From NCBI GenBank assembly GCA_039545335.1, contig BCIN01000004.1, positions 1,540,925 to 1,604,924 of the forward strand: DNA of 64,000 nucleotides, in the 5' to 3' direction. The stretch is from Kondoa subrosea. Taxonomy: Eukaryota. The position numbers and the translations under genes were made by a program. The notes under the pieces were generated by a model. That model searched no databases. It saw only the letters and a list, made by a program, of their open reading frames with translations, and was not told the origin of the DNA. This document shows, piece after piece, positions 13,756 to 37,334 of this stretch (positions are counted from its first letter, which is position 1; the number at the start of each line of letters is the position of its first letter).

Positions 13756-13881
13756 AATCGGGGTATAAGTGGTAGCAGGTCAAGAGGGGAATTGAGTGAT
13801 TATGAAGCGGGTCGACTAGATCACGAGTCACCAGATGTACAGTGGATACTATGCAATGCAAAGATGGAAACAGGGATTCTA

Positions 13882-15010
13882 CTACTGCATAGGGAAACAT
13901 TTCGCGTCCGAAGCATGAGTGCTGTTCAAACATTAGCTTGTGCTTTCGGTGCAAAGCTGGGACTCACTTGAGAATAAGCGCTACAGTAGCCGATTAGCAT
14001 ACAGATAAGCAGGATTAGGAATGTTACTTACCGACAATCAGCCCATACAGACCGATGAGTGCACTTCCAAAACAAGTGTCAGCTTTGACTATCTCCATCT
14101 GAAAAGATTACTTATCTTCAGCGAAAACTATAGCACACAGTCATTAGCGTTTTCCTTGATCGCAGAAACGAAGGACTAACTCAGCATCAAAACCATTGCC
14201 ACAAATACTCTATTCTGAAACAAGAACGCTCTGACAGACTGTACGCAAACCTTAATGCACACTTCAAACAGAAGAGCGATATAGGAGAAACGTACTGAAT
14301 CGCCAATCATACCGATTGCGTGACCAGCAGCTAATCCAGTCATTCCACACGATAATCCAGCAGCTAGATGAATGTAACCGCTGTACCAACAATCTGAGCG
14401 CCGAGTACATTTGTACTGAGATGCTAACAAAGAACGTACTTGTAGACTGAATAAGGTTTATCGGGACTCACTATCTCATACCAATAAGCAATTATTCCAT
14501 TCGCAGAGAAAGGAAACGTACGGCCTCCCACGATTAATACTGATACCACTAATCCATATACAGCAATAATACCACTCATAACCACAGGAATCAATGACTG
14601 TGCAATCCCGAAACTGCTCAATGTCTGATTGACATGCGCGATGAATACGAAAACGCACCTTCATGATCAATTCAGGTTTCATGATACCCATTCCAGTAAT
14701 CCCAATCCCAGCTTTGGAAGTTCCATAAGCTGCTCCCATTGCTAATCAAACCAAAAAGGCCGCTAATAAGCTTTGATCTCGTTTATGCTTTGTAGTATTG
14801 AGTGAACGAACTGGAAAAGATCATAGCGCTCGCTACGCCTGCGAAACCACTGTAACATCCACCATGCAGCTAGTCAGCTAATGCGACTATAGCTTGAGCA
14901 CGAAAGGGTCTTACAAGAAATGTGCATCTTGGATTTCACCATGAAATCAGCGATGTGGGCTAATAAGACCAGAGCAGGAGCATACAGGGAGGACAGTAAG
15001 GGGTAGCCAT
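13882..15010 (-). CDS. VMA11: V-type ATPase proteolipid subunit c' (Vma11)
   Basis: Spliced: [40 protein letters not shown]...[29 protein letters not shown]...HLAAGL...[34 protein letters not shown] favours c' over c. Needs an AT-AC intron (see findings). Confidence 0.9.
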
Positions 15011-15958
15011 CTTACAGCTGGCTGGATAATACAGGAGTCAAGTATGGTTCAAGACAAGCGATTCGCGAAATCTGGACCGATGAGTCGCGGATAGTCAGCA
15101 ACGGGGAACTGCGTAGCAAATATACAGTAGGGTTATGCGTCATCTTTATTCCTTAATTACAATGTTGCTCAGTTCGGTTACAATGGATTCTCAGTCATGC
15201 AATCGAATAGCAACTCGCGGACATATGATTGCCTTCATTGGTACTCTTGCTTCCAGCTTTGCTGGTGTCCTGCGCATACCATGTCAGTATTCGCCAAAGT
15301 CAATCTCAAAACAACAGCAGAGGCAAGGAGTTGAAACAACGCCTGAGAGAGGGATAAACCAGAACAACGGAAGTACTGTCAATCAAGTACTACTTATTTG
15401 TCAAGTACTACTTAGTTGCACAAATGCAGAAAGGAGCTAGCATGCAACAGAGAACGAAAATGGGACAGCATGTTGAAAGGACAGCCGACGAGACGAGCGA
15501 ATCTGGAGATTACGGTTGGACATGAGAGAATCGAGACTTCGCTGCATACTCCATCTGTGGCAGCGATGATCGCAGATTGCATGAGCAGTGCAGCGAGGGA
15601 ATGGATACTTGCTCTTTCAAAAATGATCAGAATTGGAGCCTGTTTGCGCCAAAGGATGGATGTTGTGCATCGATGTACCGAAGAGACAAGACGAAAGGTA
15701 GAGATACGTGGAAGAAGCGATGCAGAAAAGGCAACAATGAAAAGCTTGACCGAACGAGAGTAAGCTGAATGGAAGCTCTTTTTGCTGTTGCGAAATGCTG
15801 AGATATTCAGTCCAGCCAATGCTACACCACATCTTGCGACTACAACCTGATCTGTTATCCTTTCTTTACGCATGCATATCTCGTTTCAAACACCAGCTCT
15901 TGATGTTGCAATAAATAGCTCGCCAAAAACGAAAGGGAAGTAAACAGAGTTGAGTTCT

Positions 15959-16408
15959 CTAGAGGTTGAGCTTTGTTCGGCGCCAATGTCTCCTCTTGGC
16001 TGTTCAGTCCGCTCTGTCTCAGATTTTGCTCGGTCTGAATATTCAGCACGCACTGTTGTAGCCGACTTTCACGGTCTATTGGGGCCTTGTCAGCAATAAC
16101 TACGGCATAGTGTATATGGAAACATACACCCTTAATTCTTTGCCATTGAGGAATAGATCGGTTTGACTTTCCTGCCTTTGCCTGTATTCCGCATTCGCAT
16201 CAGACTCTGGCGCCCCTCCGTTCCTTCAATGATTTGCTCACAAGCTTCACTTTCGTGCGGAAGGCTAGCATAGCAGACATGAGCCTTTGAATCAAATCAA
16301 CAAGATTGCATGAAAATTTTACATTTTTGGGAAGGCTGTTGACACAAAGGGGGTATGATTAAATCAGCATGCAGTCTCGCTTCCTGTGAGTGGTATGTAG
16401 CTTGCCAT
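15959..16408 (-). CDS. RPL39: 60S ribosomal protein L39 (eL39), 6 exons
   Basis: Exons 16408-16406, 16335-16323, 16264-16242, 16181-16128, 16075-16054 and 15999-15959 splice to [51 protein letters not shown]. Not in the ORF track. Confidence 0.93.
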
Positions 16409-25116: not shown

Positions 25117-28100
25117 ATGGCTTCGTCCTTTTCGCCAGCGTGGAAACTGCCTGTCAATCATTTTGGTCGACTGGCGCATGACTTGGTCAAGGAATCGACA
25201 GATTTAACTTATCTGCGCTTGCAATTGGAGAAGTCTACGCCTGTCTTTCAATCTTTTTTGCAATTACCACCTCAGGCTAAGCAGGAAGCTGACAATCTGA
25301 GTAAAGGCGAGTTGGAATATTGTCGCACTGCTGTAGCTTGGTGTTGACATCTGATGTTCCAGGCAATCTCTTGAGACTACCTGAATCAGATGGTCTACGA
25401 ATCTCTGAAGAGTTCAAGCAGGAAGCTTTGGCTTTGTCGAAACACCTTTCGCTCTCTGAATATCTCTCAGCCTGTATCTATGCACAAGCTAGTCTGACAC
25501 ATCAAGGTCATCAGCAGTCAAATGCCGAAATCACAGAAACCGCTGTCTTGCTCTATTATGAACTTCGAGCCAATATTCTGTCTTGCCTTGTTCTGATCTT
25601 GCGCCTGGTTTTGGCAACAGACATCTCATGCCATTTTCAACTACGCGGAATGCTGGATAACTATCTCACAAGCCTTATCAACAAATCTTCATCGCAATCC
25701 TGGCCAGAGAAGTTGCTGGCTGAAATTGATCGATTGGACAAAGAAGTACAAGGTCTAACCAAACAAGCGGCTCCTATTCCTGCAATAGCCCCAGCAGCAT
25801 CAAATCCATTCTCTTTTCAAGCTGCAACGGTTCCTCCCCCTGCTACAGCTTCTACTTCTGATGCGCTAGATTCGAACTTGCAAGCACAAAGAGTTCTTTT
25901 CATTCAGGCTGAACGTCGTCAACTGGGTAAAATACTCTATCTCACCTGTACTGCCGGTTATCTATCCAAACCAGCAACCAAAGCTTTGCTACAATGGATG
26001 TCCGGTCGAACAGACATAAACGATGACGCCAACTTCCATGTCTTGGTAGCAACACTCGCAGCTCTAGATCCAACTCGTCAAGGTCTTTACGCAAACTCAG
26101 AACAGCCGGAAGAATTCTTACCTGAATTTCTTCGCGATATTTTCCAAGATGCACCTTTCATCTCTTCCCTCAACGAAATCATCTCCAAAAACGGCTCAAA
26201 TTGGAAATTACCCATCTTCCGCAATGTCATATTACTTCAATGGACTCTCTTTATGGCTCATGCTTGTCAACGAGTGCAAGGATTGGAAGATGAGACGCAA
26301 ATTTTCGAGGAGAATGTGGAAAGAGATGTTTACACGTCAGTGGAGAAAGGATCATTTGATTTCCTTTTGCACGATTTGCTGGCTTTCAAGCAAACTTCTT
26401 CTTCACGCGGAGGAGGAGAAAAGAGGAAATCTACTGCTATAATCGATCCGAGTTTCAAGGAATATACAGTCAAGCAAATCGATAGTCTTATTACTGGCTT
26501 TATATCTACTATGCATTCTATATTGAAGAAGCTAAAGAATAAAGAAGAGGATGCTAGAACTGTACCGCATCATCATCAGAGATCGATGAGAAGAAGTACT
26601 GGTCCAAGTGATGGAGAGCCAGCTGTACCAAGACAGGATGTAGCTACTTTGTTTGAATTGGTTGCCACGCTGTACAAAGATCGACCGGAAGAAGGAATGA
26701 AGTTCTGGAGAGAAGATGATGATGCTACTTATCGGTTGAACGCGTTTGTGAGATGGGCATCAGACTGCAAAGGTCCTCTAGCAAGACCTTTCTTTGACAT
26801 GCTCACATCTTTGGCAACTGGAGAAGAAGCTGCAACTTGCGCTTTTGAATTCCTTGCAGCTAACAGTGCGCATGAAGAGTTCGGCCCAAATCAACAAAGT
26901 CAAGTAATGTGCAGTTGGAATATGCTCTTTGGTGCCATTCATCATTATGCGAGTCTGCTTGGTACTTCTGGCCAACAGCAAGGCGAATTCCCACCTCAAG
27001 AAGCCGCAGATCTCACTTCTTTCACCAAACTTCTGGCTCAAGTCGTTCGCTACTCCGATATAGCTCGAGCAGCTCTCTATGACAATCAACGATATAAACC
27101 TCTTCAGAACCTCTTCTCCCTTGCTACTCCTGCCATTCCACTGGAACTCAAAGCAGCTTTGTTTGAAGCTATTTCCGCTTTCGCTCGAGGTGGCTCTTCT
27201 TTAGCTACTGACATCGCTTTGAAGACTTGGGATCAACTCGAAACCTCTGGAGTTCTATCAACAGAAACTTACGCAAAGACTGGAAGATTAACAGGCGGTT
27301 TGGTAGTAGAACTGAACGAAGTCGAAGCACCTGCTGAAATCTATCCTTCCACAACCTCTTTCGTCCGTCTTCTGGCATCACTCATACATGTTTCAAATTC
27401 AGCAGATCAACTTGAAGCTACGAAATTACCTTCCACTATCCCTGAGCACTTGGGTACACCTCATCGTAGGCCAGGTCTGGAACCGTACATATGCTTTGTA
27501 ATTGAAGAGGTGCTGGCGAAAGTATCCAGTCGAAGTTTCAAGACTCAAGGCGATAAGTGGGAATTGATCGATGGATGTATCGCTTTCCTGGTCAATTGTC
27601 TGGCAAGTCTAGACCTGGATTCTTTTCTTATGGGCAACCAACCTGGACTGGCTCAACTTCTGCTCTTGCAACCTGGATTTGATGTACTCATTCGCCTGCT
27701 AAGTGGTTCCGGACTTCTCGAAATCGTGCTGGATATAGCTGGTACCAAATTGGAGGAAGTCGATTCGCCTAAAGCTAGTCCATACCTACAATCTGCTGTT
27801 CACAAGTGTCTCAAGATGCTTTCGCTCGCTTTCGATCTCGAGCCAAAATTCCTGGAACTCGTTCTGCCTTTGCTATGGGAGCAAGGTGTATATTACTTAC
27901 CAGCAGACAAGTATGCTATGGTTAGGGCTTCTGAACCACTCGATACTCTGCTCCTCACGCATCATCAAGTCGTTCCTCAGATAGCTGCCTTGGTGAATTG
28001 TACCACATCTTCGGCGATCGCTCTCACTTCCGTCCAGCTCATCACTTCTATCTCTCTTTCCCGCCAATTCTCAGTCAGCGACCCTTACGGTCGATCGCAA

Positions 28101-31100
28101 TTCGTCCGTATGAACCGCTTGGTTGGATTTCTCGGTCAATCTGCAGAAAGTCTGAGGATTCTCGATGGTTTCGCGAGGCAATTGGAATCAGGTTCGCAAG
28201 ACTCAGACCAGAAGAACGCTGCACAGCTACAGATGGCTATTCTCGACCTTCTGCTCAAGAGTACTGAAGCTGGAAGACCAGCGCCCAATATCGCTCACTA
28301 CTTGCTCGGGTTTGATCATCGCACAACAGCAGGATCTATCAAGCTTACCGATGCCCCAACCTTTAGGCATTGCTTCCAATCTGTCATCAACTTGGCCCTG
28401 CAGCGACTTCACAGCGGAGGAGACGATAGTATCGATCCAGCAGTGGCAGAGAAAGCACTTCAGCTTCTTTACCAGCTATACAAGAATGAAGCGACAGGTG
28501 AAGCTACTTCTCGATTCCTCCGAAGTCAGGAAGATTTTGTGCTCTCAACCCTTGCGACTCTCCCACTGCCAATTGTACCATCGACAGAATATGACGGCCA
28601 ATACATTCTGAACGAGAATAGTTACAGTACTACAGCTGCATCCCTAGCCGCTAATTTGCACTCGGAAGCATGGCTCCTCAGAATAGTTGCATTAGAACTG
28701 AACGATATTGCTTCGAGGAACAAAGAGGACGACAGGCTGACGCGATTGGCTTACATTCTGCTCAGCGCCCAAGATCCGCACGAAATGTCAAACGGTTATG
28801 GACAGACTGCGGATGGGCAATCGTCGCCAAAGTTGTTGGAAATCCTTTTCTCCCTCGCCTTCTCCTGGCAAGACGAAGAAGCTTCTTCCGATCTTCAAGT
28901 CTCGCTGTACAGCGATCTCCCCTATGCGCAAAGTCTGACCATCGACAAGACAGGCTGCGAGATCTTCAGCCTCTCCATTGTGGTGTCTTTGTTGCGTGCA
29001 CGCGAACGAGGATTACGGTCGAAGCAAGCACTGGGCACCGCTGCTCAACAAACTTCTTCTGAACAAGAGAAGGAGGCTGTCATTGCATTCATTCGCTTGC
29101 AAAACAGGAAGCGTACCATTGCACACGCTCGCGCTAACCTGGTAGAAGCTTGGAGCGATGTTTTCGATATTGTCATGATGCAAGCTTTCCAAACCGTTTC
29201 GGCGGATCAAAGGCAACTCCTTTTGTTGGACCTGCTGGATGCTGTTTTCCATCTGCTGAACGTCGGAGGCGACAAAGATGGACTTTACGATCAAGTTTTA
29301 TCATCGGCGATTACGATGACCGCATTCTTGAGAGAGGAGATCAGCTTTGAACGCAAGTCCAACGAAGCGACATCGGATGTTGATGCTGTAGCTGAGCGAC
29401 TTTCGCAAGTCTTTCGTTCAGCTTTCGGCACTATCTTCTCCCCTGGTCTATCTGCAACAGCCCGCGGCAATCTATACCTTGTAGTGATCAACTGCTTACG
29501 GTTGACTTCGGATGCATCTTCAACTCGTACTGGTCCTTCCAGCAAACGAAATATTTTGGACTCTGTGATAATTTCAACCCTGCAGAATGATTTGGGTCGT
29601 TTCCTGCCGATTGTTTCGCGAGACGCAATGCTTGGAGAAGAAGCTTGGCAAATGGTTTCTTTCACTCTGCTTGATGCTATTTTACGATTCTCACAAGGAA
29701 ACGGCTTGACAAGGAAGACAGCTGAACTGCTAGCGAAACAAGGGCACCTACAGACCTTTGTTGCCAGTGTGAAGGGTGGCGAGCGGGAAATCCTTGAAGC
29801 CTTGGCCCCAGATCCAGGTCAGCCCTCATTCAAGAGATTACCTTGGTTACTGACGTACGATACAGAGTCCTTGAATGCGCTCTACGTCTATGACGCCAAA
29901 ATTTCGTTCCTCACTCGACTGGCATCGAGTAATGAAGGCGCAGAAAAGTTGATGGACACTCAGATCATTACAAGACTCGCTCAATGTGATTTCCTCTCTG
30001 TACCACCTACCGACGAGCGATTTAACATCGGTAAGTCACAACATGCCCTGTTTGAGATGCAGCTGAGGCCTACCATCAGAAGTCGATGCTTTCCTGCCTC
30101 CGGTAACATCAAGACATCAACAACTTATGTTATCGGCACTTCAGCTACTGCTTTCCGTGCTCATACATTCGAATCAGTCGAAACAACTTGCTTTCCGCCA
30201 ATTATTCTCCTTCGTACTTGCGCAAAGAGATGCCTTCATTCATGCTTTGCAGCAAGTCACTCTGGCACCAACAACTACTTCAATGAAGGTCGTTGAAGCA
30301 ATTCTTCAGCTCATGAAGCAGTCACTTGCAGTAGTTTCCGAAGAAGAGATGGTTTGTTCGCCCAATTGTTGGCGAAATGATACTTATGCATAAGACAGAC
30401 ATCACCGGCTGCTTTTGGTGGCTTACATATGGCTGTCCTAGGCCTCGCTGCGCGAGTCTTCCAAGAGCAGTCATGGGAACAAGGCATAGTACCAATGTCA
30501 GAGAAAGAAAGGGCAGACCAAATGACAGCTGTGCTAGGTATTCCCTACCCAATGGCTTTTTGGAAAGATGCTGATACGCTGTAAAGATCCTGCTGGACAG
30601 ATAAGTGTCTTTGACAGAGATCGTCGGGACAACGTCGATGGTCTCATATTGATATTGGTCTCATATCTGCAAGGCGCTACTTTAACAAAAGGTATGTGAT
30701 ATGTAGTGCGAGTTTTGTACTTAAAAGCTGATCGTCCGGTTCCAAGGCTCAAAGTCTTTCCGTCCGTCTGTGACAGGGTCATTTGACGAGACCAGTGCGA
30801 AATCAAGTAAGTGTTGATATCTAGAGACGTGTTCAAGATGCTCAATATCTTCTCAGGTCGCCTACCATCACTTCATCAGGTCCTAGTATATTGTCGCAAG
30901 CTAGTAATTATTCTCGGTCGGCGGATTGAGGATCATGAAAAGGCGAAGAACCTCAGAGCTCAAGATGGTGAAGACGAAGACTACATGAATACTGGTCGAC
31001 AGGAGCTTACTATCACAGAGGAGCAAGCGCTGGCAAGAAAGACTCGCGAAGGCATCTTAGTCGCTCTACGTATGCCCTGACCACATGCAGCAAGCGACTG

Positions 31101-31518: not shown

Positions 31519-33005
31519 TCAGGTTCGCTTCAATTTATACGTCGCGACGAATTCTTCGTGGAAGGCCTCTCCCGCTCCTGAAAGAAGTCAGAAGATGGTA
31601 TGCTATTGACTAGCCCTGGACGAACCAAAACGCACTACCATAGCACGAAAGATTGTGTCCAAATCGACGTCAGAACCTCTACCCTCGAGAGCCATACTCT
31701 TGAATGTCTAGACAGATAGATGTCAGTGAAAAGATCGACTCGTGGTCAATAGAAAAGCTTACGGCAGCACATGATGGCGACGTGCTGAGGTAAAAAGCAA
31801 TACTTTCAGTGTCCCAATTGTCAGCTCCTCTGATATCATAAAGCATATCTTGAAGCTGAGCAAACACTTTTGCTGAACTACTGTCGTCAGATGGCATATT
31901 TTCATCGATAGAAACCATCGTATTTGCGGGCAGAGTAGCCAAAGACGAGCAAACATTCATCGATGCCATCTTGAAGATCTTGGGATCTTTTGCTTGTGGT
32001 TGCCTGGAAGGATTGTTTGAGTACCTGTAATTATCATGATAGAATTGTCCAGCGCCTGGCAAAAGGGCCAGTATGTGAGATCATGCAATATATTCGGCAG
32101 TACGCTCACCATATCGCTGTGCCAGAGCATCTAGAAGATCATTCAAATCAAGTCTGCCTTGATGAATAGCCTGCATCGCTTCCTCTTGGACCGGCTGAGG
32201 GATAGAGGTCAATACTTATATTGGCAGCTACAGCTTAGTTCGCAAAGCTCACTCTCAAAGCACCTGCATTCATATCCTCTACCATTGCTTCTATATCCCA
32301 CTCTTCGGCGCTTGTCATGGATTTGAGGGTGTGTATAAGTTTTTGCGTAGAAATTTGAGAGTCTTCGTCTTCCGTTGCTGCAGTACATCGACAAGATGGA
32401 ACAGAAGGAAGTGAGGAGTATGCCATTTGCTCATTCAGCACACAGAAACTGGGCAGGCGTCTACCAGTTGCAATTAAGAGGGTCGAAGAGATTTGGGCTG
32501 AATTCATCAGACTAGTGACGACTGAAGGATTGGAAAGAAGTGAATGTTGATGAAATGCCGAAATTGAATTAACAGACCAAGAAGCGTTGTCAGGATACAT
32601 GGAGGGCGATGTGAATGATAATGAACGAGAAGAAACGAGTGCAGAAGATGTTGAAGCTGAAGGCATATTGAGCTTCGCCGACGACGATGCACAGCGCTTG
32701 AGTTGTTCGTTCTCCTTCTGAAGTTGAGCAGCCGTTTCAAGGAGCTGAGCATGTTCTTCTTTCAGCTTGAGAACTTGACTCTCCAGATCCCTTTCCTTTT
32801 GTTCTCTTTTCGCTCTAGCTACTCTCTGACAGTCTCGATTCTGCTTCCTGCGCCTCTCGGCTGCGGTCATCTCTACATACAAAGTAAGAATGCGCCTATA
32901 AACGAAGTGAATGAGCAGACCTTGAACTGGCAAATCAATGTCCATTTGGGAGGCGTTTGCAGCTGAAGAAGCTTGCGTCTTGTTGAGGTTGTACTGGATG
33001 GCCAT
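31519..33005 (-). CDS. bZIP transcription factor, tandem paralogue A
   Basis: Basic region ERRRKQNRDCQRVARAKR followed by leucine heptads. Six exons splice in frame to ...FHEEFVATYKLKRT*. Start codon uncertain. Confidence 0.8.
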
Positions 33006-33636
33006 ATACCATTGAGGAATGGTAATAGGCAGGTGATAGGCAGACAAATTAACAGGCGCAGCTATGCAGAGCACGGCCTATGCGACCAAGATACGAGCCT
33101 AGAGTGAAAAGTAACGATTCGAGGCAAGACAAGACAGGGAAAAGCAAGATCAGTCAGCGACAGGCGGTGCTCGTGGTTTTGCGGAATTGCATGGAAATTT
33201 GGAATGATCAAAGCGCAAGACTAGTGTTGTCATTTGTGCCGCTCATTCCGGCAAACTGTGACTGCAATAGCTGGTCTGGTAATGAGCAAACGAGGCGAGC
33301 CTCGAGGATAGGCCTGAGTCTTTGGTAATAATGGGTGTAGAAGGTCAAGTCTTCAAGTTGTTATCACGCGACGGATCGACAGTATTCAATAGTATTCAAT
33401 TCTCACTACTTCCGATGCAGGATCTATTCGGCATAGACCACAACAAGACGTCGGGCGCATTCAAATTGAAGCAAGCTCCAAGTCACCTAAAGCCAAAAGA
33501 AGATCGTTTCCAGATCCTTCTCTTCTCACAGGATCGAGCGAGGTGTTTTTCACATAAACCTCATATTAAGTGAGATAGAAGCAGTAGAGCTTATCCGATT
33601 TTGCAAATCGGTCGAATTTTTGTATTGTCGTTCGTT

Positions 33637-35151
33637 TCACTTCAATTTGTATGTTGTAACGAATTCCTCATAAAAGGCCTGTCCCACTCCTGCATTGCGA
33701 ATTCAGTATACACTGTATAACAGTGAAAGAGAAAGACTGACCATATCTCACAGTCATGTCATAGAACAGAGTGTCCAGATCCATGGCAGAACCTTGAATT
33801 TGCAAAGAGGTCTCTTCAAATACCTGTGGCAATCATCAGCTGACATATCACTGCCTAGACTGCAATCAAACTTACCTTGAAGCACTCATGATGATTATGC
33901 AAGTATGCACAAATGCTTGTAATATCCCACTTCTCAGCTCCGTTGATTCGACTTAAGTAACTTCGAAGTCGATCCACTCTTTCTATTGAAACGATTTTGT
34001 TCTCAGTGGCAGCCTCAGGAATGGAAACAATTGAATGTGAAGCCAAGCCAGAAAGACAGCTAGCAAGTGATTCCATCTTGAAAATCTTGAGATCCTTTGT
34101 TGGCGGTGGTCTTGATAAATCGTTTGGATACTTGTAATTGTCATGATAGAATTGACCAACGCCTGGCAAAAAGCCAATGTGTCAGGTTGTGCAATGCATT
34201 GAGCAGTAGACTCACCGTAACGTCGTGACAATGTGTCCAGCAGATCAGTTAGATTATGTCTGCCTTGATAGATAGCCTGGATCGCTTCTTCTTCTACTGA
34301 CTGACTAACGGCTGTGAGTACTTCTCTCTAGATCTATAGCTTGGCTGTATGGGCTTACTTTCAAGCAAGAGGTATCCATCTCATCTACCAAGGCTTGTAT
34401 ATTCCAGTCTTCTGCCCTCCTCATGGATTTGAGGGTGTAAATTAGCTTTTCGGTATAAATTTGGGAATTTTGGTCTTCCGTTATCGCAGAGCGTCGACAA
34501 GATAAACCATGAGGAGACGAGGAGTACGCCATTTGCTGATTGAGCACAAAGGTGTCTAGAAGACGTCTATCTGTCGGATTCCAGAGCAAGGGAGAGACTT
34601 GTCCTGTGTTCCTGAGATTTGAAAAGGTTGGAGTATTACATACGAGCGATAGATCGGATATAGAAGGAAGATCGTTAGCTTCGGAAAGCGGAACACCTCT
34701 ATTAATCGATAGAGCAGGTATTACTGAGCGAGAAGGCGCACTTGAATTGGACGATGTCGAGGCTATAGGCATATCGAATTTCTCCGATGATGACGATGAG
34801 CGCTTGAGTTGTTCGTGCTCTTTTTGAAGTTGAGCAGCAACAGTAGCCAGCTGCCTGCGTTCTTCTTTCAATTCCGCTACCCGATTTTCCAAATCTCTTT
34901 CGTTCTGAACTCTTTTCGCTCGAGCTGCTCTCTGACAATCTCGATTCTGCTTCTTGCGCCTCTCAGCTGGGGTCATTTCTGCCATAAAGAATGAGAATGG
35001 GTCTGTGACCCAGGAAATAGCTTAGCACACCCTGGACAGGCAAATCGGTATCCACCAAAGCATTGATTGTAGTTAGTGAAGATTGCCTGATGAGCTGAGC
35101 AGGTAGTACAGGAAGACCATACGCGGCTGATCCTTGGTAATATGTAGACAT
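33637..35151 (-). CDS. bZIP transcription factor, tandem paralogue B
   Basis: ERRKKQNRDCQRAARAKR plus zipper, same exon structure as A and C, ends ...FYEEFVTTYKLK*. Confidence 0.82.
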
Positions 35152-35812: not shown

Positions 35813-37334
35813 TCACTTCAATTTGTATGTCGCGACAAACTCCTCATGAAAAGCCTGTCCCACTCCTGAAAGCAAATCAGCATGTGATGTACTGCAGTAA
35901 GAGAGAAAGACTGACCGAATCTGACAGTCATATCATAAAAGATTGTGCCCAGATCCATCTCAGTCCCTTGAAATTGCAAAGAGGACTCTTCAAATGCCTG
36001 TAAAAATGATGAGCTTTGGTTCAAGGCATTTGATAGACTACAATAAGACTTACGTTGAAGCACTCATGATGAAAGCTCAAGTATGCCAAAATGCTTGTAA
36101 TATCCCATTTCTCAGCTCCGTTGATTCGACCGAAGAGAAATCCAAGTCGATCTACCCTTTCTCTCGGAATGATTTTGCTCTCGATTACAGCATCGGGAAT
36201 AGAAACAACTGTATTTGAGGCGAGGGCAGAAAGAGAACTAGCAAGTGATTCCATCTTGAAGATCTTCAGATCTTTGAAGATCTTGAGGTCTTTCGCTGAT
36301 GGTTGCCTGGAGGGATTGTTCGAGTACTTGTAATTGTCGTGATAGAAACGGCCAACGCCTGCCAACGAAGCCAGCCTTTGAGGCTATGCAAATGTATTGT
36401 ATTGTAAGCATACCATAACGCTGCGCCATTGTATCCAAAAGATCATTCAGATCAAGCCTGCCTTGGTAGATAGCCCGCATTGCTTCTTCTTCCACTGACT
36501 GATTAAAAGATGTTAGTACTTTTCTCAGATTTACAGCTTGGCTACGTATGCTTACTTTCAAGCAGGTGATATCCATCTCATCTATCATCGCTTCGATATC
36601 CCACTCTTCTGCGTTCCTCATGAATTTGAGGGTGTATATAAGCTTCTCATTGTAAATCTGAGAATCTTCATCTTCCCTTGCTGAAAAGCACCGACAAGAT
36701 GAAACCAAAGGGAGCGAAGAGTAAGCCAGTTGTTCATTAAGAACAAAGATATCAGGCAAGCGTTTGCCAGTTGCATTCCAAAGGGTCGAGGAGACTTGCT
36801 CTGGACTGATAAAGACTGAGGGATTGGATGGAAGTGAACGCTGATAAGAGGAAGTATTCGAGTTGACAGAAGAAGCAGTGTTGGAATACGGGGAAGACGA
36901 TGTGAATGATAATGAACGAGATGGAACGAGTGCCGAGGATGTTGAAGCCAAAGGCATACTGACCTTGGCCGATGATGACGATGAGCGCTTGAGTTGCTCG
37001 TTTTCCTTTTGAAGTTGTGCAGCAACAGTAGCGAGCTGCCTACGTTCCTCTCTCAATTCAGCTACTCGATTTTCCAGATCCCTTTCGTTCTGATCTCTTC
37101 TCGCTCTTGCTGCTCTCTGGCAGTCTCGATTCTGCTTCCTGCGCCTCTCAGCTGCAGTCATCCCTAGTTTAAGAGGATGAGAATGGGTTTGGGACAGAAA
37201 TAGCTCAACATACCCTCGACTGGCAAATCAAGATCCATTGAAGCAGTGTTCGCATTGGAGGAAGACTGTCTCATGACTTGCTGATTTTGCGCAGGAACAC
37301 AATAGGTGGCTGAGGCCTGGAAATAGCCAGACAT
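35813..37334 (-). CDS. bZIP transcription factor, tandem paralogue C
   Basis: ERRRKQNRDCQRAARARR plus zipper, same exon structure, ends ...FHEEFVATYKLK*. Has a 6-residue duplication KDLKIFKDLKIFK. Confidence 0.82.

Follow-up and report, generated by a model that had tools for sequence, protein, structure and literature searches.

The 57-nt segment at 14115..14059 on the minus strand of the window (the whole 64-kb stretch of DNA analysed here) is probably a real spliceosomal intron of the U2-type AT-AC class ('AT-AC type II'), located in the V-ATPase c' gene of a basidiomycete. The use of this junction, its efficiency and its dependence on the major spliceosome are deduced from the sequence. 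U2-type AT-AC introns have already been described and are very rare. The present one would add a further case, in which the splice appears to be obligatory beside an essential residue.

The V-ATPase proteolipid gene spans 13882-15010 on the minus strand and is made up of 11 exons and 10 short introns (46-136 nt). Exon 1 is uncertain and is drawn at 14970..15010, from the ATG at 15010 to a weak GTCTTA donor at 14969, as judged by eye from comparison with the related metagenome locus L033; this boundary is the sole in-frame canonical solution from that ATG. Exon 2 (14812..14849) is followed by exon 3 (14659..14741), exon 4 (14522..14597), exon 5 (14440..14470), exon 6 (14296..14380) and exon 7 (14181..14238), all on the minus strand. 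Intron 7 (14128..14180, 53 nt, GTTAGT...TATAG) precedes exon 8, a 12-nt microexon (14116..14127, ..TT TTC GCT GAA G) that holds the codon for the essential Glu. Intron 8 (14059..14115) is the 57-nt AT...AC segment, in phase 1, and leads into exon 9 (14032..14058, TC ATC GGT ..., encoding (V)IGLYGLIV), which is followed by a 13-nt exon 10 (13968..13980) and by exon 11 (13882..13921), with a TAG stop codon at 13882-13884. Two microexons, of 12 nt at 14116-14127 and of 13 nt at 13968-13980, thus occur within one proteolipid gene.

Joined by their coordinates, exons 2-11 encode 153 residues. The product of the AT-AC model aligned with a Sporobolomyces johnsonii protein (P0023) at 82.6% identity over 149 residues with no gaps, with proteins of Rhodotorula and Leucosporidium at 78-80% identity, two of which bear the name subunit c', and with Puccinia-type proteins at 81-82% identity. 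Single-exon read-through pieces, from exons 3 and 6, gave only weak matches to Pfam PF00137 (ATP-synt_C; 16.7 and 18.7 bits, cut-off 24), as unspliced pieces, and P0023, to which the spliced model aligns, carries PF00137. The pattern F[AGS]EV[IL]GLYG with Glu in the last transmembrane helix was found under the AT-AC model only. When P0023 was used as a proxy against solved structures, yeast c' was the best match (210.5 bits, with 193.5 for c). Among single exons of the window, the exon 4 piece scored 30.3 bits on c', its best PDB match, versus 22.7 on yeast c, and the exon 6 piece 24.4 bits on c' versus 32.8 on yeast c. The best named relatives are annotated c'. The gene is therefore assigned, with some reserve, as c'-like (VMA11-like), the reserve being due to the inconsistent preference of single exons for c or c'. 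As c and c' have the same Glu motif, the argument from the last transmembrane helix (TM4) is valid for c too. Judging from these sequence matches, the host is a basidiomycete of Pucciniomycotina type.

Direct re-reading of the minus strand found the letters and coordinates of the AT...AC segment in the original prediction to be exact. Intron 8 opens with ATAAGT (14115..14110) and closes with GTGCAC; the upstream exon ends in ...GCT GAA G and the downstream exon opens with TC ATC GGT CTG TAT at 14058, the intron falling between bases 1 and 2 of the Val codon directly after that of the essential Glu. A branch-site-like CTGAC lies at 14078..14082 on the minus strand, with 20 nt from its branch A (14079) to the AC end and 15 nt to an alternative AG. 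As had been predicted, excision of the 57 nt restores the conserved TM4 sequence, giving FAEVIGLYG, which is free of gaps against the homologues and has the spacing of every homologue examined. Logan contigs of two DNA runs covered 13800-15100 with 0 differing letters and 0 gaps at word depths of 144 and 54, and keep AT/AC base for base where an assembly error would leave GT/AG in the reads; both runs come from one sample, which may be the window's own source, and represent a re-assembly of reads and not an independent strain. Since the independently reassembled contigs of both runs are identical, a slip in the assembly of the window is unlikely.

Canonical alternatives were enumerated as GT/GC-AG introns of 30-170 nt, from the start of exon 7 to the end of exon 9, taken singly or in pairs. 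The 153 candidate introns gave 77 open reading-frame solutions, none of which produced FAEV[IL]GLYG. IFAE was kept in only one of the 77, via a 48-nt in-frame intron at 14064..14111 on the minus strand, with a GTAATC donor at 14111 and a GGAAG acceptor ending at 14064; its product, FAEDNALIGLYG, retains the Glu and has three additional residues (FAE-DNA-LIGLYG). The claim that this is the sole GT-AG alternative was correct, as the exhaustive enumeration left no other. The conclusion that the segment 14115..14059 must be an intron is supported, with AT-AC being the only ends that would give the conserved TM4.

The donors of the eight other certain introns of the gene are GTTCGT, GTGCGT, GTACGT (three introns), GTTAGT, GTAAGT and GTGAGT, and in all eight introns +5 is G, +6 is T and -3 is a pyrimidine. 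The AT-AC intron (ATAAGT, gCAC) has all three, and its first and last bases are the sole differences from GTAAGT...CAG. Hexamer counts in the window were not discriminating, GTAAGT and GTGAGT being enriched about 2-fold, GTAATC 1.5-fold (34 observed versus 22.6 expected) and ATAAGT 1.36-fold. As GTAATC is not depleted in the window, the case for its being a weak donor is built on eight introns of one gene together with general knowledge of fungal 5' sites. The pattern ATAAGT-N(15-45)-CTRAY-N(8-30)-YAC had one match in the 64-kb window, at intron 8, with 1.60 expected, and at least one match was obtained in 78 of 100 shuffles. The bare motif proves nothing, and the signal is the exact register with both exon ends and with the conserved frame, given that the approximately 1.6 chance matches are spread over approximately 128,000 possible start positions.

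A total of 78 related loci were fetched from metagenomes, and 74 of these were informative for intron position. Of the 78, 66 have a contiguous F[AGS]EV[IL]GLYG and seven more (L011, L022, L032, L033, L035, L072 and L073) regain it by canonical splicing; L029 includes the donor side only, and L059, L061, L077 and L078 do not extend to the motif. An insertion between Glu and GLYG was present in none of the 66 contiguous loci, none of the spliced loci and none of the homologous proteins that span the motif, and complete named homologues from Puccinia and Sporobolomyces show the same E-V-[IL]-G-L-Y-G spacing. Five distinct sequences (L011, L022, L029, L032/L033 and L035, with L032 and L033 being one sequence present twice) have a GT-AG intron inside the Glu codon, arranged as ...TTC GCY G | GTTCGT or GTACGT ... 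YAG | AG GTY ATY GG. Like intron 8, this intron of the relatives is short, in phase 1 and in the same gene, with a ...TTC GCY G microexon and the TC ATC GG flank. Unlike intron 8, it has GTTCGT/GTACGT donors and YAG acceptors, and the microexon before it is of 10 nt (in four of the five relatives) versus 12 nt in the window. It also lies 3 nt (one codon) upstream, splitting Glu as G|AG; as the intron in the window is 3 nt further 3', the microexon contains the complete Glu codon (GAA) and the split falls in the Val codon. The intron before the microexon, intron 7, is displaced as well, being 1 nt 3' of the matching intron of the relatives.

No intron is present in the TM4 stretch of L017-L019 and 53 further genomic loci, and the ten loci L001-L010 are cDNA-like and uninformative on introns. 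In L072/L073 (L073 3170-3290), a 10-nt microexon, A GAG GTC ATC, places the Glu codon between two GT-AG introns. As intron states here differ among the relatives (GT-AG intron, the split arrangement of L072/L073, or none), the TM4 stretch seems to be a hot spot at which introns of this fungal group are gained, lost or moved. An intron at the exact position of intron 8, or with AT-AC ends, was found in none of the 74 informative loci, and the AT-AC state is therefore not conserved. The position proposed for VMA11 was thus matched in relatives as far as a GT-AG counterpart in the same phase one codon upstream, and not as regards the exact site or the AT-AC ends. Intron 8 probably descends from, or replaces, this GT-AG intron. 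A plain 3-nt slide of it without indels was rejected because the 3' flanks (AGG and TGCAC) fail to line up. Read-through ORFs of closer relatives were of no use for the ends of intron 8, with P0011 and P0013 stopping before it and P0001 and P0004 not reliably placed, and an antisense 56-aa ORF across intron 8, used as a probe for the DNA of close relatives, gave no candidate.

The gene was also assessed for constraint. Against five cDNA-like relatives, pN was 0.13-0.22 versus a pS of 0.77-0.88, with synonymous sites saturated, and over the whole divergence the gene is strongly constrained, under purifying selection overall. In the close relative P0011, a read-through ORF, 4 of the 46 residues of exons 6-7 differ, and in P0013, also a read-through ORF, exon 6 is matched in frame and the coding frame is left before exon 7. 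When read through, the intron that separates exons 6 and 7 is unalignable in both, comprising 17 residues in P0011 and 19 in the window.

The 5' end of the gene is irregular. The N-terminal motif C-P-P-Y-A-P-F-F, intact in L033, is split over two reading frames in the window, where between 14850 and 15010 (minus strand) C-P-P shares its frame with the ATG at 15010, L-Y-A-P-A-L is in another, and two extra bases separate the two. Splicing from the strong donor GTATGC (14985) to the 14850 acceptor loses the frame set by that ATG, and only the weak donor GTCTTA (14969) recovers it; by eye, use of the weak donor puts a different six-residue stretch in place of YAPFF, ahead of G-F-A-G-V. This irregularity may be a compensated frameshift, pointing to selection for the downstream frame, or a first sign of decay. 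An AT-AC reading of intron 1 (ATGCTC...GTTAC, 14983..14852), which is in frame, was not adopted because its 5' end matches no known consensus.

That irregularity bears on the reading in which the copy is decaying or inactive, AT and AC being two lesions of a former GT-AG intron and no working c' being made. Two independent irregularities in one 1.1-kb gene, namely the AT-AC ends of intron 8 and the split CPP/YAP motif with the out-of-frame donor of intron 1, speak for it. However, all 10 downstream exons are open, with the identity to the S. johnsonii relative free of gaps, and the eight other certain introns have intact ends. The two terminal changes are exactly the pair that is reported to restore splicing, one of nine possible double changes, and the remainder of both splice sites is still perfect consensus. 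Moreover, the 5' irregularity is frame-compensated (+2 nt, +1 nt), which looks like selection and not drift, and exons 6 and 7 are kept in close relatives, where the intervening intron can no longer be aligned, so that an inactivation, if any, would be very recent. Decay of the gene is accordingly considered unlikely, though it is the strongest of the competing readings.

Use of the GT-AG alternative (14111 to 14064) as the main splice, which would give a c' with DNA inserted after the Glu (FAEDNALIGLYG), is quite improbable. It has canonical dinucleotides, is in frame, would use the same branch site at 15 nt, and has a donor hexamer that is not avoided in the window. Nevertheless, with T, C and A at +5, +6 and -3 (GTAATC; gAAG) it departs from the other introns of the gene at all three positions that they share, the insertion it implies is the one missing from every related locus and protein with the motif, and three polar or small residues in TM4 would shift the helical position of the Glu relative to GLYG. 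Two further pairs of ends, GA...CA giving FAE-L-IGLYG and TA...CT giving FAE-D-IGLYG, both preserve the length of TM4, but neither is a recognised splice class, and it is Val, not Leu or Asp, that follows Glu in 66 of the 66 contiguous-motif loci; these are very improbable. A U12-type intron, removed by the minor spliceosome, is scarcely credible. AT-AC termini are typical of one U12 subclass, and the terminal dinucleotides are the only feature that U12-type AT-AC introns have in common with intron 8. The U12 consensus comprises a 5' box, /RTATCCTT, and a branch box, TCCTTAAC, 10-15 nt from the 3' end. Within its 57 nt, intron 8 has an ATAAGT start in place of an ATATCC motif, no TCCTTAAC-like box, and a branch A that is 20 nt from the 3' end, in agreement with the earlier description of a donor that is not U12-like and a CTGAC branch site. 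In addition, Basidiomycota are reported to be without minor introns and minor snRNAs in the available portions of two surveys (PMC10639083; PMC2846911), the second of which took in a rust, and the remark on the absence of the minor spliceosome in the original prediction is in line with these.

Intron 8 has the sequence features of the U2-type AT-AC class, i.e. AT/AC ends, a /ATAAGT 5' site and a major-type branch site at the usual distance. According to the part of PMC5029451 that was available, /ATAAGT is a 'very strong' consensus of the known U2-type AT-AC introns, and the class, under the same definition, accounts for 24 of 608,562 U2-type introns from five species in the excerpted text of PMC1557818, where fungal xylanase genes are also mentioned as cases proposed earlier. 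In fungal annotations, AT-AC is described in an extract of PMC7072748 as rarer than in animals and plants and as ranking below CT-AC, the latter possibly an antisense artefact, and AT-AC is listed among the splice types in the long-read annotation of a mushroom in a section of PMC12230235. The U2-type AT-AC reading was supported in part, by the ends, the /ATAAGT consensus and the basidiomycete host, and the suggestion that the intron is rate-limiting or regulatory was left without support. A literature search combining AT-AC, proteolipid and V-ATPase found no paper, with supplements outside its scope, and one combining AT-AC with basidiomycete genera gave nothing relevant among the matches listed. 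PMC3091305 was set aside as an AT-AC paper, the string there denoting polyketide-synthase domains only. Rfam gave 0 matches within the 64-kb window, which says little on the snRNAs of the whole genome.

Given removal of intron 8 as a U2-type AT-AC intron, U1 and U6 would pair with AAG|AUAAGU, a normal fungal 5' site save for the A at +1, and this register would overlap and out-compete the GUAAUC register 4 nt downstream. U2 would pair with CUGAC, and the first step would cleave before the initial A of the intron. The second step would then take the first usable AC past the branch (14060-14059), the CAC right after the branch A being skipped as too close for use. At this second catalytic step, the first A and the last C can together take the place of the usual G-G contact of the intron ends, and would do so here, whereas an intron started at GT would take the first AG (14065-14064) instead. 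Joining of GAA G to TC ATC would yield the conserved FAEVIGLYG of TM4 and keep the proton-carrying Glu in the usual register of the helix.

A distinctly unlikely extension of this scheme is that the two overlapping 5' sites, AAG|ATAAGT and GATAA|GTAATC (the latter 4 nt further downstream), with a shared branch site and with an AC or AG end of their own, constitute a splice switch. The AT-AC route could then yield a working c', and the in-frame GT-AG route a subunit in which the Glu is displaced and which could poison or limit the assembly of the proteolipid ring. If this were true, the output of the V-ATPase would be set by the second-step fidelity of the major spliceosome, and both ends would have been changed across a fitness valley from the relatives' GT-AG intron one codon upstream.

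A close experimental parallel to the preferred U2-type AT-AC intron is from yeast. Parker and Siliciano reportedly changed the first base from G to A and the last base from G to C in an otherwise consensus major-type yeast intron. That an engineered AT-AC intron is spliced in yeast in vivo is stated in the accessible text of PMC5029451, citing Parker and Siliciano 1993. The S. cerevisiae intron has the same end changes as that in the window, in a fungus without a minor spliceosome; it is a laboratory mutant, whereas the intron in the window would be natural, presumably constitutive and needed for the register of the Glu. The only AT-AC case known in S. cerevisiae itself is a side product of 1-2%, as given in the available part of PMC5029451. 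This AT-AC intron, nested in the intron of RPL30, is, like intron 8, a natural AT-AC junction in a Dikarya fungus without U12 machinery, but it is used in approximately 1-2% of transcripts, its 5' site is unlike ATAAGT and the main protein is not its product (PMC5029451, same excerpt); in the window, the 5' site matches ATAAGT exactly, and the normal protein appears to require the junction. Human SCN4A and SCN5A introns, and the genome-wide set of Sheth et al. 2006, as excerpted from PMC1557818, resemble intron 8 in having AT/AC ends, /ATAAGT and an ordinary branch site, and are likewise very rare. Introns of the SCN4A/SCN5A type are from animals and are established by experiment or cDNA, whereas that of the window is from a basidiomycete and is deduced solely from protein conservation; unlike them, it is only 57 nt long and adjoins a 12-nt microexon.

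If confirmed by cDNA, intron 8 would be a natural and apparently obligatory major-spliceosome AT-AC intron in a fungal phylum without a minor spliceosome, and would parallel in nature the classic yeast experiment on first-base/last-base suppression. Known splicing mechanisms would be unchanged by it. Gene finders that allow GT/GC-AG ends only would break the gene or else place three additional residues next to the proton-carrying Glu of the V-ATPase subunit. Together with its relatives, the window offers a small, clean case for the movement and co-change of intron ends.

The surroundings of the gene were characterised by scanning 70 of the window's 281 stop-to-stop ORFs (of at least 70 aa) against Pfam, which named the neighbouring genes and yielded too few intron pairs for a splice-site weight matrix. 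The neighbours include Utp21/WDR36, an F-box protein, a TFIID subunit, Nup192, bZIP proteins, peptidase M76, a proteasome subunit, a TRPY1-like channel and Nup133, i.e. an ordinary eukaryotic housekeeping set. The Nup192-type nucleoporin is encoded at 25305-30293 on the plus strand by a single uninterrupted frame of 4,989 nt (Pfam E 4.5e-223). Intron density is very uneven in this genome, with 10 introns in the 0.5-kb proteolipid CDS and an uninterrupted Nup192 ORF. Three successive ORFs on the minus strand, at 32238-33077, 34308-35021 and 36241-37227, have weak matches to bZIP_1 (20.6-25.2 bits, cut-off 27.6) and may be a tandem bZIP gene family. Directly upstream of the proteolipid gene, at 15858-16199 on the minus strand, a short stretch matches ribosomal protein L39 (21.2 bits, cut-off 21.6) and probably represents a single exon of an RPL39 gene split by introns.
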